Part shown: positions 1,954 to 57,838 of the stretch, in pieces
Position numbering within the stretch: the stretch's first letter is position 1
How the letters are laid out: each line of letters begins with the position of its first letter
Origin: an uncultured Gammaproteobacteria bacterium
GTDB taxonomy: Bacteria > Pseudomonadota > Gammaproteobacteria > Arenicellales > CAJQKF01
Reading direction: 5' to 3'
Assembly: GCA_905478855.1 (NCBI GenBank)
Contig: CAJQKF010000034.1
Coordinates: 2,633-66,632, forward strand
DNA length: 64,000 nt
The notes under the pieces: model-generated
What the model was told of the DNA's origin: nothing
Databases searched by the model: none
What the model saw: the letters and a program-made list of their open reading frames with translations, nothing else
Made by a program: the position numbers and the translations under genes

Positions 1954-2541
1954 ATGGCGGCCATTCATAGAATTAAGACCAGTTCTGGCGCAATCAGATA
2001 CCGCGCACAAATACGCCGCAAAGGCTACCCTACGATGTCCAAGAATTTCCCAACCAAAGCCGCTGCGCGGGAATGGGCTAGAGGGGTTGAGCTAGATATC
2101 GCAACCGCTGCGGCTAAATTTAAACCTGATGTTGAGAAACACACTTTCTCAGAATTAATTGGTCGCTATATCGAAGACGCCCAACCAAGTAAAGATCAGA
2201 TCCGGCATATTAGGTGGTGGGACAAACATCTAGGCCATAAGTTGCTCCACGATCTGAAATTATCAGATTTCAAAGAGGCCCGACGGATCTTACAAAAAGA
2301 ACCCAAACAATTGGGGGGTGTCCGAGTGCAGACGCTAAAGCAGCCACGCACTCCCGCTACAGTTAATCGCTATTGCACCGCAGCCAGTGTTGTACTTAAT
2401 TATGGCACGGGAAAGAATGACGGGCCTGATGGCTGGTTAGACCGCAACCCAATGCGATCCCTTGGCAAACTAAAAGAGAGCAAATGTCAGGACGTCAGAT
2501 TGAACTTGCAGCTACACAGGAGAAAAAGAAGCATGGTTTAG
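1954..2541 (+). pseudogene. tyrosine-type site-specific integrase, N-terminal fragment only (arm-binding and core-binding regions; catalytic domain missing)
   Basis: MAAIHRIKTSSGAIRYRAQIRRKGY...ATVNRYCTAASVVLNY...NPMRSLGKLKESK is typical of the N-terminal third of phage/island integrases. The frame ends at 2541, and no R-H-R-Y catalytic domain appears in any frame downstream. Confidence 0.7.
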
Positions 2542-2818
2542 TTACTCGACTTAATAGTAATGTGTCTGGTGGGCTAAGTGGTGATCAATTTTACGTCTAC
2601 GTGGCAAATAGGTTGGTAATGCCAAACTTGAAGAAAGACGATTTGGGGAAATTTACTACGGGTGATAGCCGTTTCGGTGGATGTGAAATTACGGTAGTAT
2701 TATAGCGTTACTTCTTGGGCTTCCCTGTGATTTTATGGTTTTTCTGCAACTACGATTTTTCGAAAGCCAAGAGAGTGCCGTATGTTTTTAGTTTCTTCTC
2801 GAGGCCGCTGTCAGAATT

Positions 2819-5017
2819 ATGGGAAAAAAAGCAAGCATTTTTTTTGCAGTACTCCAAGGAGACAAGGTTCTTTCAAAAAAGCTCGACTCCACCCTGAAAC
2901 AAGTTGATGAATATCACTATGCGTTGTTTGATTCCGGTAATGGACGTTATTATCGGATTAACAATTCCTCAGCACTGATTTGGTCTTGCCTGGTTTTAGG
3001 AGATACTCTTTGTACCCTGTTCAGGAAACTGAACGAGAAACTGGATGCCGGCATTGATTCACAAGTCGTTGAAGATACGCTTGCTGTGCTTCATCATTTC
3101 GAAAGAAGAAAACTCATAAGGTATAGGCCAACTGTAAACTTAGAGGCTGAAGCTGAAAAACACCTCAGGCAGCGGATGCGAGAGGAAAAGAAGAGCGAAA
3201 GAGCTAAGTGGAAAAGTGTCAAAAGCTCACCGAAGCCAGTTGAAGTGATTCCGGAAGGTAAATACAGAGATGAAAAGCCAGGCACAGATAGTCGATATGC
3301 TATTATAAGTCATCGCAGAAGTGGCACCCACTTCCTGTGGGAAGTGATGCGACAAAACCTGGGGGTTGGCTTGGTGCCGGGTCAGTGTCTATGGGATATT
3401 CCCAAGATTCACGACCTGTTTTCTGCAAAACTTCTGCAGCGAATCAAGGATCGAAAAAGCCTATATATAATGCGGGATATAAGAGCCGTTTTGGTTGCGA
3501 ACTATAACTATTGGAAAAATGGCGAAAAAAGATACAACCTATCAGAAGTATTTCAGAAAATACCGTTGTCCAGTTATATACGGGGAGATATACCACTCGA
3601 TGGTGTTCCTGATGAATTAAGAGCTGAAGCGGAACAACTTTTCTCTGATCCAATTGAGTATTGGATCAGACATACAGAATGGTCAAAGCACGTGTTTACC
3701 ATTCGCTACGAAGACCTGAAAAGCAACGAAAAACATACAGTATCAAAGATAGCAAATTACCTTGGTATAAAATTTGATCCGCAAGATTACAAAGAACTTA
3801 TAAAGCTGGTGGGGCATCTTCCGCAGAAAGGAAAAATTAGCGCCTGGAGAGATGTTTTCACTGATGATGATCTAAGATTTATTTGGTCAAAAGTAGGTCA
3901 AAGGATGGAAGAACTCGGATATTCCGAGGATATAACTCACGCATGCCCTGAATCCAAGAGTGTTGAAACTAGGAACCACATTGTGCCAAATAATATTTTG
4001 GGTGGCGATGTAGAGTCTCAAATACGTTTTCGAATGGGTCGTTTTTTTGCTCCTGCAGCCTTGCCCGGCGATGAATGGGTATCTCGAGTTCCTGCTGGTC
4101 ATCATTTTTTGCAGTTTGAACATGGTGAGTTAAGAAGTGTAAGTGGGCCAGAGCAGCGTGGCATTCATCGACTGGGTAAATTCAAGGAGATGCTTGAAAA
4201 ACTTAAAATACCTAAATCACCTTTCTCTTTGGAGTTTTCCTGCGGAGACGCCGCAGCACAGCATGAAGTTAATCCAATTCACGGCCATTTCAGGGTTACC
4301 GGATCCGACGCAACAATTCTTTGGCCTTTGGCGGGGTATACGGATATTAATTCAAAAATCTTCGGAAAAAATGTGGGAAAGCATGATTGTTCTTGGGATG
4401 AAAAAATCGAGATTGCTGTATGGCGAGGGACGTCATCAGGTACGTCTTGGCAAAACAAGACGATTGATCAAATAGAAGAATGTATCAACAGGGCTTTGTC
4501 AGCGACTGATCGATTTGGAGGAAAGGTCTTGGCTAAAGGAAACCGACTTACCTTGGTTTCCCGATATTATGATGCCAAGTTTGTCGACGTCGGATTGTCA
4601 AAAACAGGGCAAACCGATGGTATTGCAAAGGCCTATTTCACCAAGCGGAATTTCTTAAAGTCAAGACTATCCGACTCAGAACTTTTGCGATACAAGTATC
4701 AAATTGTTGTCGACGGTAACACGTTTGCTTCCCAACTGCCTTGGACTCTGCATTGTGCAAGTGTGATTCTTATGGTTCCACCATCTTGGGAGTCAATTAT
4801 TGCTGGAATTAGACCTTGGCAGCATTTTGTTCCTCTGGCGCCGGATTACTCCGATCTGGAGGAGAAGGTAGACTGGTGTCGCGCTCACGATACTGAATGT
4901 CAAGAAATTTCAGCTGCCGCCACTCGATTGATGCGGTGCTACTATGACCCGCAAACAGAGCAGCAGATACAACAGGGATTGCTCGAGCAATACACTCAGA
5001 ATTATTTCAGCATATAG
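2819..5017 (+). CDS. three-domain fusion protein: PqqD/RRE-like domain, sulfotransferase domain, glycosyltransferase family 90 (CAP10/POGLUT-like) domain
   Basis: aa ~32-101: YALFDSGNGRYYRINNSSALIWSCLVLGDTL...VVEDTLAVLHHFERRKLI follows the PqqD pattern. aa ~159-370: SHRRSGTHFLWEVM (5'-PSB loop), LYIMRDIRAVLVANYNYW, IRYEDLKSNEKH..IANYLGI and KGKISAWRDVFTDDD are sulfotransferase motifs. aa ~430-732: WRGTSSG, KYQIVVDGNTFASQLPWTLHCASVILMV and HFVPLAPDYSDLEEKVDWC are GT90/CAP10 motifs. Confidence 0.7.
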   Translation: MGKKASIFFAVLQGDKVLSKKLDSTLKQVDEYHYALFDSGNGRYYRINNSSALIWSCLVLGDTLCTLFRKLNEKLDAGIDSQVVEDTLAVLHHFERRKLIRYRPTVNLEAEAEKHLRQRMREEKKSERAKWKSVKSSPKPVEVIPEGKYRDEKPGTDSRYAIISHRRSGTHFLWEVMRQNLGVGLVPGQCLWDIPKIHDLFSAKLLQRIKDRKSLYIMRDIRAVLVANYNYWKNGEKRYNLSEVFQKIPLSSYIRGDIPLDGVPDELRAEAEQLFSDPIEYWIRHTEWSKHVFTIRYEDLKSNEKHTVSKIANYLGIKFDPQDYKELIKLVGHLPQKGKISAWRDVFTDDDLRFIWSKVGQRMEELGYSEDITHACPESKSVETRNHIVPNNILGGDVESQIRFRMGRFFAPAALPGDEWVSRVPAGHHFLQFEHGELRSVSGPEQRGIHRLGKFKEMLEKLKIPKSPFSLEFSCGDAAAQHEVNPIHGHFRVTGSDATILWPLAGYTDINSKIFGKNVGKHDCSWDEKIEIAVWRGTSSGTSWQNKTIDQIEECINRALSATDRFGGKVLAKGNRLTLVSRYYDAKFVDVGLSKTGQTDGIAKAYFTKRNFLKSRLSDSELLRYKYQIVVDGNTFASQLPWTLHCASVILMVPPSWESIIAGIRPWQHFVPLAPDYSDLEEKVDWCRAHDTECQEISAAATRLMRCYYDPQTEQQIQQGLLEQYTQNYFSI

Positions 5018-6460: not shown

Positions 6461-7498
6461 CTAACGCCAACTAAGAACGACCTTACCACTGCTACCCTTT
6501 AACATTTGCTTGAAACCTGTTTCAAATTCACTCGCTGGTAGACGATGGGTAATCACACCTCTGATGTCAAGTCCATTTTGAATCATTGCAATCATTTTGT
6601 ACCAGGTCTCAAATATTTCCCGACCGTATACGCCTTTAATTGTTATGGCCTTAAAAACAATTCGTGACCAGTCCACACTCGATTTACCCGCAGGTACACC
6701 GAGTAGGGCGACATTTCCGCCCATTACTAGCGTTTCGATCATTTGATCTAAGGCCAGTTGATTCCCGGACATCTCCAGGCCCACGTCAAAGCCTTGCTTT
6801 AAACCCAATTCAGCGGTGACATCATTGAGATCCTCTTTTAATGGATTAACGGCACGCACATCCGCAACTTTTTCAGCGAGCTGTAATCGATCGTCATTTA
6901 CATCGGTAATTACTACATTACGGGCGCCGACATGTTTTGCAACAGCCGCAGCCATAATGCCAATTGGGCCTGCACCAGTAATTAAAACATCTTCGCCGAT
7001 AAGGTTGAAGCTAAGTGCTGTATGCACAGCATTACCTAATGGATCTAAAATTGAGCCGATTTCGTCGTCGATGTCATCAGGTAACGGCACTACATTAAAT
7101 GCAGGGAGTTTTAAGTATTCGGCGAAGGCGCCGGGCTCGTTCACGCCTATACCTCGTGTTCCGGGATCTAGGTGAAATTTCCCAGAGCGCGATTGTCTTG
7201 AATTTTTACCAATTAGATGTCCTTCACCTGAGCAACGTTGGCCGACTGATAAGTCAGTAACAGCCGAGCCTAGTTCAACTATTTCTCCACTGAACTCGTG
7301 CCCGATGATGAGCGGCACCGGTATAGTTTTTTGAGCCCACTCATCCCAGTTCCAGATATGTAGATCCGTTCCACAAATAGCGGTTTTATTAATGCGTATC
7401 AGTACATCTTCTGCACCAATTTCGGGGATCGGTCGTGTCTCTCGCCAGATGCCGGGTTCAGCTTTCGATTTGACTAACGCATGCATAGTTTTGTTCAT
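6461..7498 (-). CDS. tdh: L-threonine 3-dehydrogenase
   Basis: [64 protein letters not shown] is collinear with E. coli Tdh. Its ATGA overlaps the upstream kbl, the canonical kbl-tdh operon arrangement. Confidence 0.95.
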
Positions 7499-8697
7499 GA
7501 TAAAACACCGGTTTGACGTCCTGCCTGTGCGAAGGCATTTAACGCAAAGTCCAGATCATCTCGACTTAATGCTGCGTTCATTTGAGTTCTTATTCTGGCT
7601 TCCCCATCTGGAACAACTGGATAAAAGAAACCTGACACATAAACCCCGCGTTCAAACAAATTCTCTGCCATAGTTTGAGCAAGCTGTGCATCGCCGAGCA
7701 TTACCGGCACAATCGGATGGTTACCGGGTTTTAAATCGAAGCCAAGATCGCTCAATCCATTTCGCCAGTACTGTGTATTACTAAATAATTGTTGCCGAAG
7801 ATGATCACCCTCTTCGATTAGTTTTAGTGCGGTTAGTCCAGCTTTAACCACCATGGGTGGAAGTGAGTTTGAAAATAAATAGGGTCGCGCGCGTTGGCGT
7901 AGCATGTCAATAACTGACTGAGGCCCGGCAACGTATCCACCGATGGCACCGCCCAGGGCTTTGCCTAAAGTTCCAGTAAGAATATCCACATCCACATTGA
8001 AATGTGCTGCAGTACCCTGTCCCTTAGGCCCCATAAAGCCGGTGGCATGGCAATCATCTACCATGACCAGTGCATTATAGGCGTGGGCCAGTCGTGTTAT
8101 CTCGGGTAAGTTAGCTAAGTAGCCGTCCATGGAAAACACACCATCTGTTGCTATCATGACAAAGCGCGCGCCATCGTTTTTCGCTTCCTGTAGTTTTTTC
8201 TCCAGATCTTCCATATTGGAGTTTGCGTATCTATATCGTTTCGCTTTGCATAAGCGAATGCCATCGATAATTGAAGCGTGATTGAGCGAGTCGGACACAA
8301 TGGCATCTTGTGGCCCCAGTAAGGGTTCAAATAGCCCGCCATTTGCGTCAAAACAGGCTGCAAAAAGAATAGAGTCGTCTTTACCGAGAAATGCAGCCAA
8401 GCGTTGTTCGAGCTGTCTGTGAATATCTTGTGTACCGCAAATAAAACGAACTGATGCCATGCCATAGCCGTATTCATCCAAACCTTCTTTTGCGGCGGCT
8501 ATCAGCTTAGGGTGATCGGCTAGTCCTAGATAGTTATTTGCGCACAAATTGATAACGTTTTGTTTAATTTGCTCGTTCTCAGAAACATCAATATGTCCAC
8601 CTTGGGGGGAAACTATCGGGCGCTAAATCTTGTATAAACCTTTATTCTTTATCTCGTTTAAAGAATTCAGAAGGTGTTCCAGAAAAGGCTTAGTCAT
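7495..8697 (-). CDS. kbl: 2-amino-3-ketobutyrate CoA ligase (glycine C-acetyltransferase), interrupted by one in-frame TAG at 8623-8625 (possible pseudogene or sequencing error)
   Basis: [12 protein letters not shown]...[12 protein letters not shown]...FSMDG...GTLGKALGG is collinear with E. coli Kbl. ATG 8697 gives [33 protein letters not shown].. in the same frame. The full length would be 400 aa. Confidence 0.85.
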
Positions 8698-55634: not shown

Positions 55635-55663
55635 TTGACGATTAAACACTCTGCGAGTATATT
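55635..55663 (+). promoter_or_regulatory. sigma70 promoter of the tRNA operon, with a GC-rich discriminator
   Basis: TTGACG (55635-55640), a 17-nt spacer, then TATATT (55658-55663), followed by CCCCGCCC. An A/T-rich UP-like tract lies upstream. This is the stringent-controlled stable-RNA promoter architecture. Confidence 0.6.
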
Positions 55664-55709: not shown

Positions 55710-55786
<77 letters not shown>

Positions 55787-55817
55787 GTTTATTGTTAAAT
55801 GGTCGAAGTAAATATTT

Positions 55818-56180
55818 GCGCCCGTAGCTCAATTGGATAGAGCAACGGCCTTCTGGCCAAAAGAGTAGTATTTGGCGTGGAGCCTTTCGAGAGAAACAGA
55901 ATTTCGAGAGTGCAGGACACTGTATCGGTGAAACCTTAACGCGTAGCGGCGATGGCAATACCGAGGAAACCGGGATCTGAATAAGATCCGGTACACGAAG
56001 GGCGGATTTATTCGCGGGTAGTGTATCTAAGGGATCCGTAGAGACTATACGTGTCCCACCTGCGATGGTGAAGATATAGTCCAGACCACAAAGTTTGATG
56101 GGTTTCTATCAAATGCAACGAAAGTTGTAGCGGGTAAGCTAAGCCGTAGGTTACAGGTTCGAGTCCTGTCGGGCGCGCCA
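55818..56180 (+). tRNA. tRNA-Arg (anticodon UCU) gene split by a 286-nt intron. Exon 1 is 55818-55852 and exon 2 is 56139-56180.
   Basis: The joined exons give a perfect 77-nt cloverleaf: acceptor GCGCCCG/CGGGCGC, D arm GCTC-AATTGGATA-GAGC, anticodon stem ACGGC/GCCGT, loop CTTCTAA, T arm ACAGG-TTCGAGT-CCTGT, then G-CCA. It closely resembles E. coli argU. Confidence 0.9.
55853..56138 (+). ncRNA. group I intron (IC3-like), no ORF, in the anticodon loop of tRNA-Arg(UCU)
   Basis: The 5' exon ends in U, and its CUU can pair with GAG at 55863-55865 (P1). The terminal base is G at 56138. R-like box GTAGAGACTATACG is at 56038-56051 and S-like box AAGATATAGTCC at 56071-56082. Proposed pairings: P7 GACTATA/TATAGTC; P3 GGACAC (55915-20)/GTGTCC (56051-56); P4 TCGGTG (55925-30)/TACCGA (55959-64); P8 CACC-TGCGAT-GGTG. 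Confidence 0.85.
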
Positions 56181-56215
56181 GGTATTTTAGATTTTAACGA
56201 TTTGACAGTATTTAT

Positions 56216-56292
56216 GGTGAGCGTAGCTCAGTTGGTAGAGCCCCGGATTGTGATTCCGGTGGTCGTGGGTTCGAGCCCCATCGTTCACCCCA
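56216..56292 (+). tRNA. tRNA-His (anticodon GUG), with encoded G-1
   Basis: GGTGAGCG...anticodon stem CCGGA/TCCGG, loop TTGTGAT, T-loop TTCGAGC, ...CGTTCACCCCA. Close to E. coli hisR. Confidence 0.9.
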
Positions 56293-56307
56293 TTTTAAAT
56301 GTGCAAC

Positions 56308-56383
<76 letters not shown>

Positions 56384-56391
56384 GACACTTG

Positions 56392-56476
<85 letters not shown>

Positions 56477-56539: not shown

Positions 56540-57838
56540 ATGCAGTCTTCACTAGAAACTATCGGTACTATTGGCCGAAAAATGACGATTACAATACCTT
56601 CGGAAAGACTGGAGGATAAAGTTGTCGAGCGTTTGAAATCCGTAACTCATAACGCACGTTTACCCGGTTTTAGGCCAGGTAAAGCACCGCGCAAGCTGAT
56701 CGATGCTAAGTATGGTCCACAGGTCGTAAGCGAAGTGGCCGAGCAATTAATTAATGAGGGATATCGCGAAGCGGTCACCGAAAATAAGATCATTCCTGCC
56801 GGATCACCGCGTATTGAAGCTAAGAAGATCGAACGTGGCAGTGATTTGGAATTTGTTGCTGAATTTGATGTTTTCCCAGAGATTCTAAAAACCAGTTTAG
56901 AAGGGGAAACCATAACTAACCCAGTTTGTTCAATTGGTGACGACAATATTCAAAATACAATTGACTCGCTTCGACAACGCCAGGTTAAGTGGGAAGAAAC
57001 AGAAGATGCGTCTGCTGATGGCGATAAGGTGACGATAGATTTTGTCGGAAAAATTGATGGCGAAGTTTTCGAAGGCGGAGAAGCAACGGACTTCGACCTC
57101 GTTTTAGGCTCCGGTTCTATGCTGCCAGATTTTGAAGCCGCTCTGTTCGGTGTGAAAAAAGATGACGTAAAAACCGTTGATGTCGATTTTCCCGACGACT
57201 ATCCCGGAGAAGTGGTTGCTGGAAAGACTTCATCGTTCAATATCACCGTGAAGAGTATCAACCATCCGATTCTGCCCCCACTCGATGATGAGTTTGTAAA
57301 GTCACTTGGCGTCGCGGCTGGAACACCAGAAGCACTTGATGCTGAAGTTCGGAAGAACCTAGAACGCGAATTGAACGATCGCATTCGTATGAATGTGAAG
57401 ACACAGGTCATGGATAAAATGGCCGAGTTGAACCCAATCGACGTTCCCCAGCAAATGGTTGAAGAGGAGCTGACCCGAATGGTTGAGCAAACTACAGCCC
57501 AATACCAACAGCAGGGCATGAAAGACGTGCCAATTGATAAAGAACAATTACGCCCTCAGGCCACCCGACGTGTTGCGCTAGGTCTTATTATGAGCGAGGT
57601 CATTCAGGGCAATGAAATTAAACTGGATGAAGATAAGCTAAGAGCACGTGTAGACGAAATGTCTACGGGGTATGAGAAACCTGAAGAGTTTGTCCAATGG
57701 CATTATGCTGATCGGTCCCGTCTAGCAAGTATGGAGGCGCTGGTGCTCGAAGATCAAGTAGTGCAATTTTTGGTCGGTTCAGCAACATCCGAAGATAAAG
57801 AAGTTGATTTTAAGGAATTTACTTCCAGTCAGGCTTGA
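56540..57838 (+). CDS. tig: trigger factor
   Basis: MQSSLETIGTIGRKMTITIPSERLEDKV....K.V.....LPGFRPGKAP. ATG 56540 is chosen because the ORF-track start (56447) overlaps tRNA-Leu. Confidence 0.95.
   Translation: MQSSLETIGTIGRKMTITIPSERLEDKVVERLKSVTHNARLPGFRPGKAPRKLIDAKYGPQVVSEVAEQLINEGYREAVTENKIIPAGSPRIEAKKIERGSDLEFVAEFDVFPEILKTSLEGETITNPVCSIGDDNIQNTIDSLRQRQVKWEETEDASADGDKVTIDFVGKIDGEVFEGGEATDFDLVLGSGSMLPDFEAALFGVKKDDVKTVDVDFPDDYPGEVVAGKTSSFNITVKSINHPILPPLDDEFVKSLGVAAGTPEALDAEVRKNLERELNDRIRMNVKTQVMDKMAELNPIDVPQQMVEEELTRMVEQTTAQYQQQGMKDVPIDKEQLRPQATRRVALGLIMSEVIQGNEIKLDEDKLRARVDEMSTGYEKPEEFVQWHYADRSRLASMEALVLEDQVVQFLVGSATSEDKEVDFKEFTSSQA

Follow-up and report, generated by a model that had tools for sequence, protein, structure and literature searches.

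A group I intron in the anticodon loop of a marine gammaproteobacterial tRNA-Arg(UCU) gene

Introduction

This article concerns a bacterial tRNA gene that is cut in two within its anticodon loop. The gene, for tRNA-Arg(UCU), lies in a tRNA cluster with the order Pro-Arg-His-Lys-Leu, upstream of tig, on a 64,000-nucleotide stretch of contig CAJQKF010000034.1 from an uncultured gammaproteobacterium. We call this whole stretch the window, and positions are counted from its first letter. An earlier note on this DNA, the original prediction, had recognized the cluster and read the insert in its tRNA-Arg gene as a group I intron that splices itself. The cluster is as described there. The insert has a group I fold conserved in evolution and belongs to a large family found in bacterial genomes and on viral contigs, and we are confident that the copy in the window is a real and intact group I intron.

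A tRNA gene in two halves

Joined, the two exons (Table 1) make a 77-nt tRNA that folds as a regular cloverleaf, has its CCA encoded and is called by ARAGORN as tRNA-Arg(tct). Given the raw locus in intron mode, the program returns the same tRNA with a 286-nt intron. Both calls bear out the split gene that had been proposed, and the likeness to Escherichia coli tRNA-Arg, also proposed, amounts to 87% identity across 77/77 nt. Two Arenicellales-type loci in other genomes (L037 and L090) specify the same mature tRNA, letter for letter.

The intron lies between U34 and C35. A CT repeat at both boundaries makes three junctions formally possible, of which one only (U55852/G56138) provides U(-1) together with a terminal G; with the other two the intron would end in C or U. 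Comparing the three candidates in the sequence thus leads back to the junction originally chosen. The insert was also correctly described as ORF-less: no plus-strand open reading frame (ORF) of at least 30 aa lies within 55853-56138, and the remaining ORFs are short or overlap the tRNA, on the minus strand. Every sequence element that the original prediction listed is present where it was placed, whatever its role proved to be.

Table 1. Features of the split tRNA-Arg(UCU) gene and its neighbours in the window. Pairing percentages and compensatory changes refer to the alignment of 68 introns, and R1 and R2 to the covariance models, described in the text.
Feature	Position	Strand	Description	Basis
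5' exon	55818..55852	+	Acceptor stem, D arm, 5' anticodon stem, C32 U33 U34; U55852 is U(-1)	ARAGORN call on the spliced product
Group I intron, 286 nt, ORF-less	55853..56138	+		ARAGORN intron mode, local match to Rfam Intron_gpI, R1 and R2
P1	55850..55882	+	C55850:G55882, U55851:A55881, U55852.G55880 (splice-site wobble), C55853:G55879; guide GGAG 55879-55882	C:G, U:A, U.G in 68/68; R2 alignment
P1-loop hairpin, lineage-specific	55856..55876	+	GCCAAA 55856-61 / UUUGGC 55871-76, 9-nt loop	Minimum-free-energy fold of 55847-55884
P2 stem-loop	55884..55910	+	55884-92 / 55902-10, 9 bp	Compensatory changes at 8/9 pairs; 98.4% of cells paired
P3, 5' strand GGACAC	55915..55920	+	Partner 56051-56056	Both-side changes at 5/6 pairs; 99% paired
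P4, J4/5, P5 and P5a	55925..55964	+	P4 55925-30/55959-64; J4/5 AAA 55931-33; P5 55934-35/55954-55; P5a 55940-42/55949-51	P4 89% paired, P5 96% paired, P5a compensatory at 3/3 pairs; covered by R1
P6, P6a and P6 extension	55965..56037	+	P6 55965-67/56035-37; P6a 55970-71/56032-33; extension 55972-56031, ~60 nt, lineage-specific, two predicted hairpins, an insertion relative to R1	P6/P6a 96% paired
P7, 5' strand G(A)GACUA	56041..56047	+	Bulged A56042; partner 56077-56082; pseudoknot with P3	Match to Rfam and family consensus
P3, 3' strand GUGUCC	56051..56056	+	Partner 55915-55920	Covariation
P8 hairpin CACC-UGCGAU-GGUG	56057..56070	+	56057-60/56067-70	3/4 pairs compensatory; 100% paired
J8/7 AAGAUA and P7, 3' strand UAGUCC	56071..56082	+		Rfam and R1; part of the search pattern
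P9 domain	56085..56135	+	P9 56085-89/56130-35; P9a 56094-99/56108-13, closed by G56093.U56114; P9b 56115-19/56124-28, GAAA tetraloop 56120-23	P9 93.5% paired, 3 compensatory pairs; P9b compensatory at 5/5 pairs
Terminal (omega) G	56138..56138	+	Last intron nucleotide	Read from the sequence
3' exon	56139..56180	+	C35 U36 A37 A38, 3' anticodon stem, variable loop, T arm, acceptor stem, encoded CCA
tRNA-Pro(UGG), upstream neighbour	55710..55786	+		ARAGORN; Rfam tRNA, 66.5 bits
tRNA-His(GUG), tRNA-Lys(CUU), tRNA-Leu(UAG), downstream	56217..56476	+		ARAGORN, Rfam
tig	56540-57838	+	After the tRNA cluster
Candidate sigma-70-like promoter	55635..55663	+	TTGACG-17-TATATT	10/12 consensus matches

A family of introns at one position

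Relatives were sought in one genome per species (GTDB), by scanning for a P7/J8-7 core with G+CUAA 32-62 nt further on, and at least 120 loci came back. On these relatives ARAGORN in intron mode often chose ghost 5' exons or wrong isotypes, and for this reason we located each 5' exon from the pairing of its anticodon stem and put every spliced product to the test again. Species genomes with the same split tRNA-Arg(UCU), the intron at the same position, number at least 104, and at least 40 of them show the Pro-Arg-His(-Lys)(-Leu) neighbours seen in the window. The gammaproteobacterial hosts comprise Arenicellales, Woeseiaceae, Chromatiales, Candidatus (Ca.) Thiodiazotropha, Methylococcales and Lentisalinibacter. 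Beyond them, the family occurs in Acidobacteriota, in Bacillaceae (including Bacillus cereus and B. gaemokensis), in Exiguobacterium, and in Bacteroidota, Omnitrophota and others.

Among the matches listed, the window intron comes closest to those of Arenicellales, with which it shares 79-81% identity across 204 columns of the core. The introns group largely by host taxon, as would be expected of a maintained, functional element. The genes flanking the locus are only ~64-76% identical to those of the retrieved genomes, which makes the host a distinct marine gammaproteobacterial lineage. Proteins identical to its Tig were found on contigs of marine metagenomes only.

Covariation and the group I core

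Sixty-eight introns of at most 325 nt were aligned and compared with an explicit P1-P9 model of 61 pairs, projected from the window's own row and with P7 treated as a pseudoknot. Pairing holds in 92.4% of the cells of this alignment and drops to 33-43% once the 3' partners are shifted by 1-3 columns; both sides change at 39 of the 61 pairs. The covariation score is 0.462, versus 0.10 at most; not one of 500 shuffles reached the observed value on any measure. The bulk of the compensatory changes falls in P2, P3, P5a, P8, P9 and P9b, none of which was fixed by the search pattern.

From 33 relatives, with the window excluded, we built two covariance models, one (R1) for the core from P3 to the 3' strand of P7, the other (R2) for the exon end with P1 and P2. 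R1 finds 55909-56084 with 127.5 bits (E=6e-32), aligning all 131 model positions, as its sole match in 64 kb, and R2 finds 55847-55913 with 39 bits (E=3.3e-8) as its sole significant one; both E-values are rough, coming from a shortened calibration, but the margins are very large. R1 and the covariation in P3, P4, P5a, P6 and P8 together recover the conserved catalytic core of a group I intron: P3-P4-P6 and P7-P8, the P3/P7 pseudoknot, J4/5 and J8/7. The generic Rfam model Intron_gpI (RF00028), to which the original prediction had pointed as a check, aligns over model positions 1-253 in a permissive search of 55780-56220 (441 nt), with 21.4 bits and E=0.0026. The match is therefore full-length, yet falls short of the gathering score of 50 bits. 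No other Rfam family rose above noise around the locus in that local search.

The set of diagnostic group I features first read from the sequence survives with one exception. P3, P4 with J4/5, P7, P8, the GNRA hairpin in the P9 region and the terminal G are all present, and every helix except P7, which the search pattern fixes, is backed by covariation in the relatives. Within the P4-P5a region there is also an internal loop, CCUUAA...GAUGG, that we take to resemble a tetraloop receptor. The exception is P1.

The guide sequence of P1

In the original prediction the end of the 5' exon was paired with GAG at 55863-55865. That trinucleotide exists, but it falls within a 9-nt loop, that of a hairpin inserted here, and we reject it as the conserved partner, the guide of the family being GGAG, at 55879-55882 in the window. 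In all 68 aligned introns GGAG, followed by CC directly before P2 (motif GGAGCC), is invariant. Exon nucleotides C32-U33-U34 pair with it as C:G, U:A and U.G in 68/68, and usually the first base of the intron pairs as well. R2 places the guide of the window at the same four nucleotides and treats 25 nt of the P1 loop as an insertion, at a site where several other gammaproteobacterial members carry unrelated hairpins. The U(-1).G wobble of a group I P1 is there, as U55852.G55880.

Missed by standard annotation

The original prediction expected standard tRNA finders to miss this gene, and they do. Between 55710 and 56476 default ARAGORN calls tRNAs for Pro, His, Lys and Leu, with nothing at 55818-56180, and a search of the whole window at Rfam gathering thresholds returns six ordinary tRNAs only. 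The same holds for the family. Of 15 members tested (L007, L011, L012, L017, L037, L039, L055, L060, L063, L066, L067, L078, L083, L090 and L113), none reached the gathering score of Intron_gpI, and their split tRNA-Arg genes went uncalled too. Annotation that relies on Rfam in the standard way therefore overlooks the intron family as a whole. The sub-threshold score in the window reflects the low sensitivity of the model for tRNA-Arg(UCU) introns and is not evidence against membership. According to Williams in 2020 (bioRxiv 10.1101/2020.01.27.920355), who used a cut-off of 18-20 bits, the Rfam seed holds no bacterial sequences.

The value of the locus lies mainly here, in annotation; general knowledge of group I introns is unchanged by it. 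Without intron-aware tools the genome seems to lack tRNA-Arg(UCU), despite AGA and AGG making up about a fifth of its Arg codons. A family overlooked by routine annotation, yet present in at least 104 species genomes and on 38 viral contigs, can distort estimates of tRNA complement and codon capacity for metagenome-assembled genomes.

Homing endonucleases and viral copies

The window intron has no homing-endonuclease ORF, the mark of a mobile intron. Some of its relatives are different. Among the genomic introns (at least 104), 27 measure 597-704 nt, and most of these contain a 136-155-aa ORF in the P6 loop; L067, L113 (Exiguobacterium mexicanum) and ~25 further genome loci are examples of the long form. 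Apart from its ORF, L067 (region 2304-3501, Lentisalinibacter salinarum) is nearly identical to the ORF-less L078. Two P6-loop ORFs that we tested match Pfam PF11645 PDDEXK_5, of the PD-(D/E)XK type, with E=6e-38 and 5.5e-36, and the ORFs of this kind presumably encode homing endonucleases. No PDB sequence matched the PD-(D/E)XK intron ORF at E<=0.01; our claim is the match to PF11645, not homology to I-Ssp6803I.

The family extends to viruses. On viral contigs (IMG/VR, L126-L181), 38 of 56 matches are a split tRNA-Arg(UCU) with an intron of the same family, and in 29 of the 38 the intron is 593-726 nt long. The three viral introns examined (L155:3891-4501, L165 and L136) carry ORFs of a different endonuclease type, and the two ORFs that were scanned match HNH_3 (PF13392) with E ~1e-11. 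L155 is clearly phage DNA, with genes for dUTPase, dNMP kinase and DNA ligase and an array of 16 tRNAs. Isolated phage genomes essentially lack the intron, giving no more than exon-only matches, plus one match to the core in a 484-kb uncultured phage. The literature we searched held nothing specific on group I introns in phage tRNA-Arg genes.

The same contig offers a separate observation. An NrdD-like anaerobic ribonucleotide reductase gene of the phage (L155:5613-8474) is split by an ORF for a GIY-YIG-type homing endonuclease (6898-7536), and this is another mobile-element insertion on that contig.

Relation to known introns

The original prediction knew of no earlier description of an intron in tRNA-Arg(UCU), or in a tRNA operon of this kind. 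Such descriptions exist, and the genomes counted above point the same way. Williams 2020 (bioRxiv 10.1101/2020.01.27.920355) extended the bacterial tRNA settings of group I introns from 4 to 21, and the seed alignment of that work contains Rba190.Arg.3Ug, which starts CUU/C...GGAG. Flood 2016 (PMC4853749), citing MacGregor 2013, mentions putative group I introns splitting the tRNA-Arg-TCT of Beggiatoaceae. The window intron is a further member of a known, widespread intron class.

The closest published type is Arg.3Ug. The window shares its isotype, its insertion point (CUU/C), U(-1), the terminal G and the GGAG guide: the tRNA-Arg is cut after nucleotide 3 of the anticodon loop, and the spliced product scores as tRNA-Arg. 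The two differ in detail. The Arg.3Ug seed has an Azoarcus-like P6 (GCC...GGU) and UGCA after GGAG, whereas the window and most of the family matches have GGAGCC and a P6 of the form GGAAACC...GGGAUCC; read by eye, only one locus of our set (L043) resembles the published seed. The subtype in the window thus looks like a sister of the published one.

The Beggiatoaceae introns, from Maribeggiatoa 'BOGUAY' and Ca. Thiomargarita nelsonii Bud S10, likewise occur in Gammaproteobacteria, interrupt the same tRNA and were missed by annotation pipelines; the account of them in Flood 2016 (PMC4853749) gives no structure or subgroup, and the likeness is one of description.

Two classical introns are instructive. 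The cyanobacterial and plastid tRNA-Leu(UAA) intron is inserted at the same place (U34/35), after an exon that also ends in CUU, and is small, with the same P1 layout and a similar core, although it interrupts another tRNA and differs in details of P2, P6 and P9. Its self-splicing has been proven by experiment, whereas the window intron is known from sequence alone. The Azoarcus tRNA-Ile(CAU) intron shares the core motifs GUAGAGACUA...ACG and AAG..AUAGUCCAG, AAA in J4/5 and, in the P9 region, a GAAA tetraloop. It interrupts its tRNA at loop position 5 and has a smaller length (~205 nt), the window having in addition the P1-loop hairpin, the P6 extension and the P9a hairpin. Compared by motif only, the core of the window intron matches the Williams seeds of all four classical bacterial tRNA introns, which GISSD marks as IC3 according to Williams 2020 (bioRxiv 10.1101/2020.01.27.920355). 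By these motifs it resembles that type.

Mechanism and alternatives

The splicing chemistry that we propose is modelled on the Azoarcus tRNA-Ile and cyanobacterial tRNA-Leu introns. The Pro-Arg-His-Lys-Leu cluster would be transcribed as a single polycistronic precursor, probably from the candidate promoter at 55635-55663, and the intron would fold into P1-P9. An external guanosine, bound in P7 as the presumed guanosine-binding helix, would attack after U55852. The terminal G56138 would then occupy the guanosine site, and U34, its 3'-OH now free, would attack after G56138, joining the exons so that the anticodon loop reads CUUCUAA. End-processing and base modification of the ordinary kind would complete a tRNA decoding AGA and AGG.

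Several points weigh against an intact, self-splicing intron. Self-splicing at this locus is something we infer, by the analogy just drawn. P10, between the flank of the guide and the 3' exon, appears from the sequence to be 1 bp only, and P9 has a mismatch, A56088 x G56132. P7, J8/7, the terminal G and the CUAA start of the 3' exon were fixed by the search pattern, and their invariance is no independent evidence. To these may be added the rough E-values of R1 and R2 and the Rfam score under the gathering threshold. Lastly, the absence of a second tRNA-Arg(UCU) covers the window and the metagenome collection, not the whole genome.

The weak P10, the mismatch, the inferred splicing and a visible genome of 64 kb would fit a dead relic, derived from a group I intron that no longer splices, leaving a tRNA-Arg pseudogene while AGA and AGG are read by a tRNA encoded outside the window. 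We think this quite improbable. Not one invariant position of the core has been lost. Of the 94 columns with at least 90% conservation the window departs from 5, and four of these departures form two compensated pairs (in P2, 55892/55902 changes from G:C to A:U, and 56093/56114 changes from C:G to G.U). In the 61-pair model the window leaves only 1 pair open, where the family median is 4. Its exons are both flawless and match exactly those of relatives with flanks of only ~70% identity. Four independent marine metagenome assemblies with the same Tig protein also carry the intron unchanged, and in the metagenome collection no uninterrupted allele with the same tRNA core was found in a matching context.

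A group I fold that needs a host protein cofactor or special conditions, perhaps as a regulated gate on AGA/AGG decoding, is in our view highly improbable. Many group I introns do require protein chaperones in vivo, neither the P1-loop hairpin nor the ~60-nt P6 extension has an equivalent among the minimal members of the family, and the weak P10 fits as well. However, the characterised small bacterial tRNA introns, from Azoarcus and Anabaena, self-splice efficiently, and the sequence gives no sign of a cofactor, with no ORF in or beside the intron. The chance that the insert is of another kind (a fragment of a miniature inverted-repeat transposable element or insertion sequence, a group II intron or an archaeal-type protein-spliced tRNA intron) and group I-like by accident is negligible: the generic Rfam score under threshold would suit it, but it is contradicted by family models at E=6e-32 and E=3e-8, by covariation in P2, P3, P5a, P8 and P9, by the lack of any other Rfam family above noise in the region and, for introns of the archaeal or eukaryal protein-spliced kind, by a 286-nt insert with a group I core at 34/35 and not at the canonical 37/38.

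If the intron is the intact group I element we take it to be, how much depends on it? In 33 long ORFs of the window AGA is used 7.8 and AGG 3.5 times per 1000 codons, together ~20% of Arg codons, which implies that tRNA-Arg(UCU) is needed. ARAGORN finds no second tRNA-Arg(UCU) in the 64-kb window, and a metagenome scan for the 59-nt tRNA core gave one unrelated locus. That the tRNA is essential, and efficient splicing with it, is plausible. A bolder proposal, which we regard as unlikely taken whole, would make this the only AGA/AGG-decoding tRNA of the organism, with ribozyme splicing an obligatory step, possibly sensitive to guanosine or Mg, in rare-codon translation, and would see in the tRNA-Arg(UCU) introns a far larger and more mobile family than has been documented, spread across many phyla and phage tRNA arrays, with two unrelated types of homing endonuclease, and invisible to Rfam thresholds and default tRNA finders.

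The unrelated locus deserves a description. The only uninterrupted tRNA-Arg(UCU) with an identical 59-nt core in the metagenome collection (Ga0163109_10002880, L182:3583-3657) has a different acceptor stem and no encoded CCA; a lone tRNA-Lys(UUU) lies 3 kb off, and outside the tRNA there is no similarity to the window. It may be the tRNA of a phage or mobile element.

Compared over 781 nt with the cluster of the window, to which four others are 99.7-100% identical, one further metagenome locus with an identical Tig (L003:937-1705) has 19 mismatches and opens 14 gaps. These differences could be assembly errors or the sign of a divergent strain, and L003 was left out of the analysis.

A promoter-like match inside the core

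On the minus strand a second promoter-like match, TTCACC-17-TATAGT (9/12), lies inside the intron core at window positions 56072-56044, across P7 and P8. It is probably a chance product of the AU-rich J8/7-P7 sequence.

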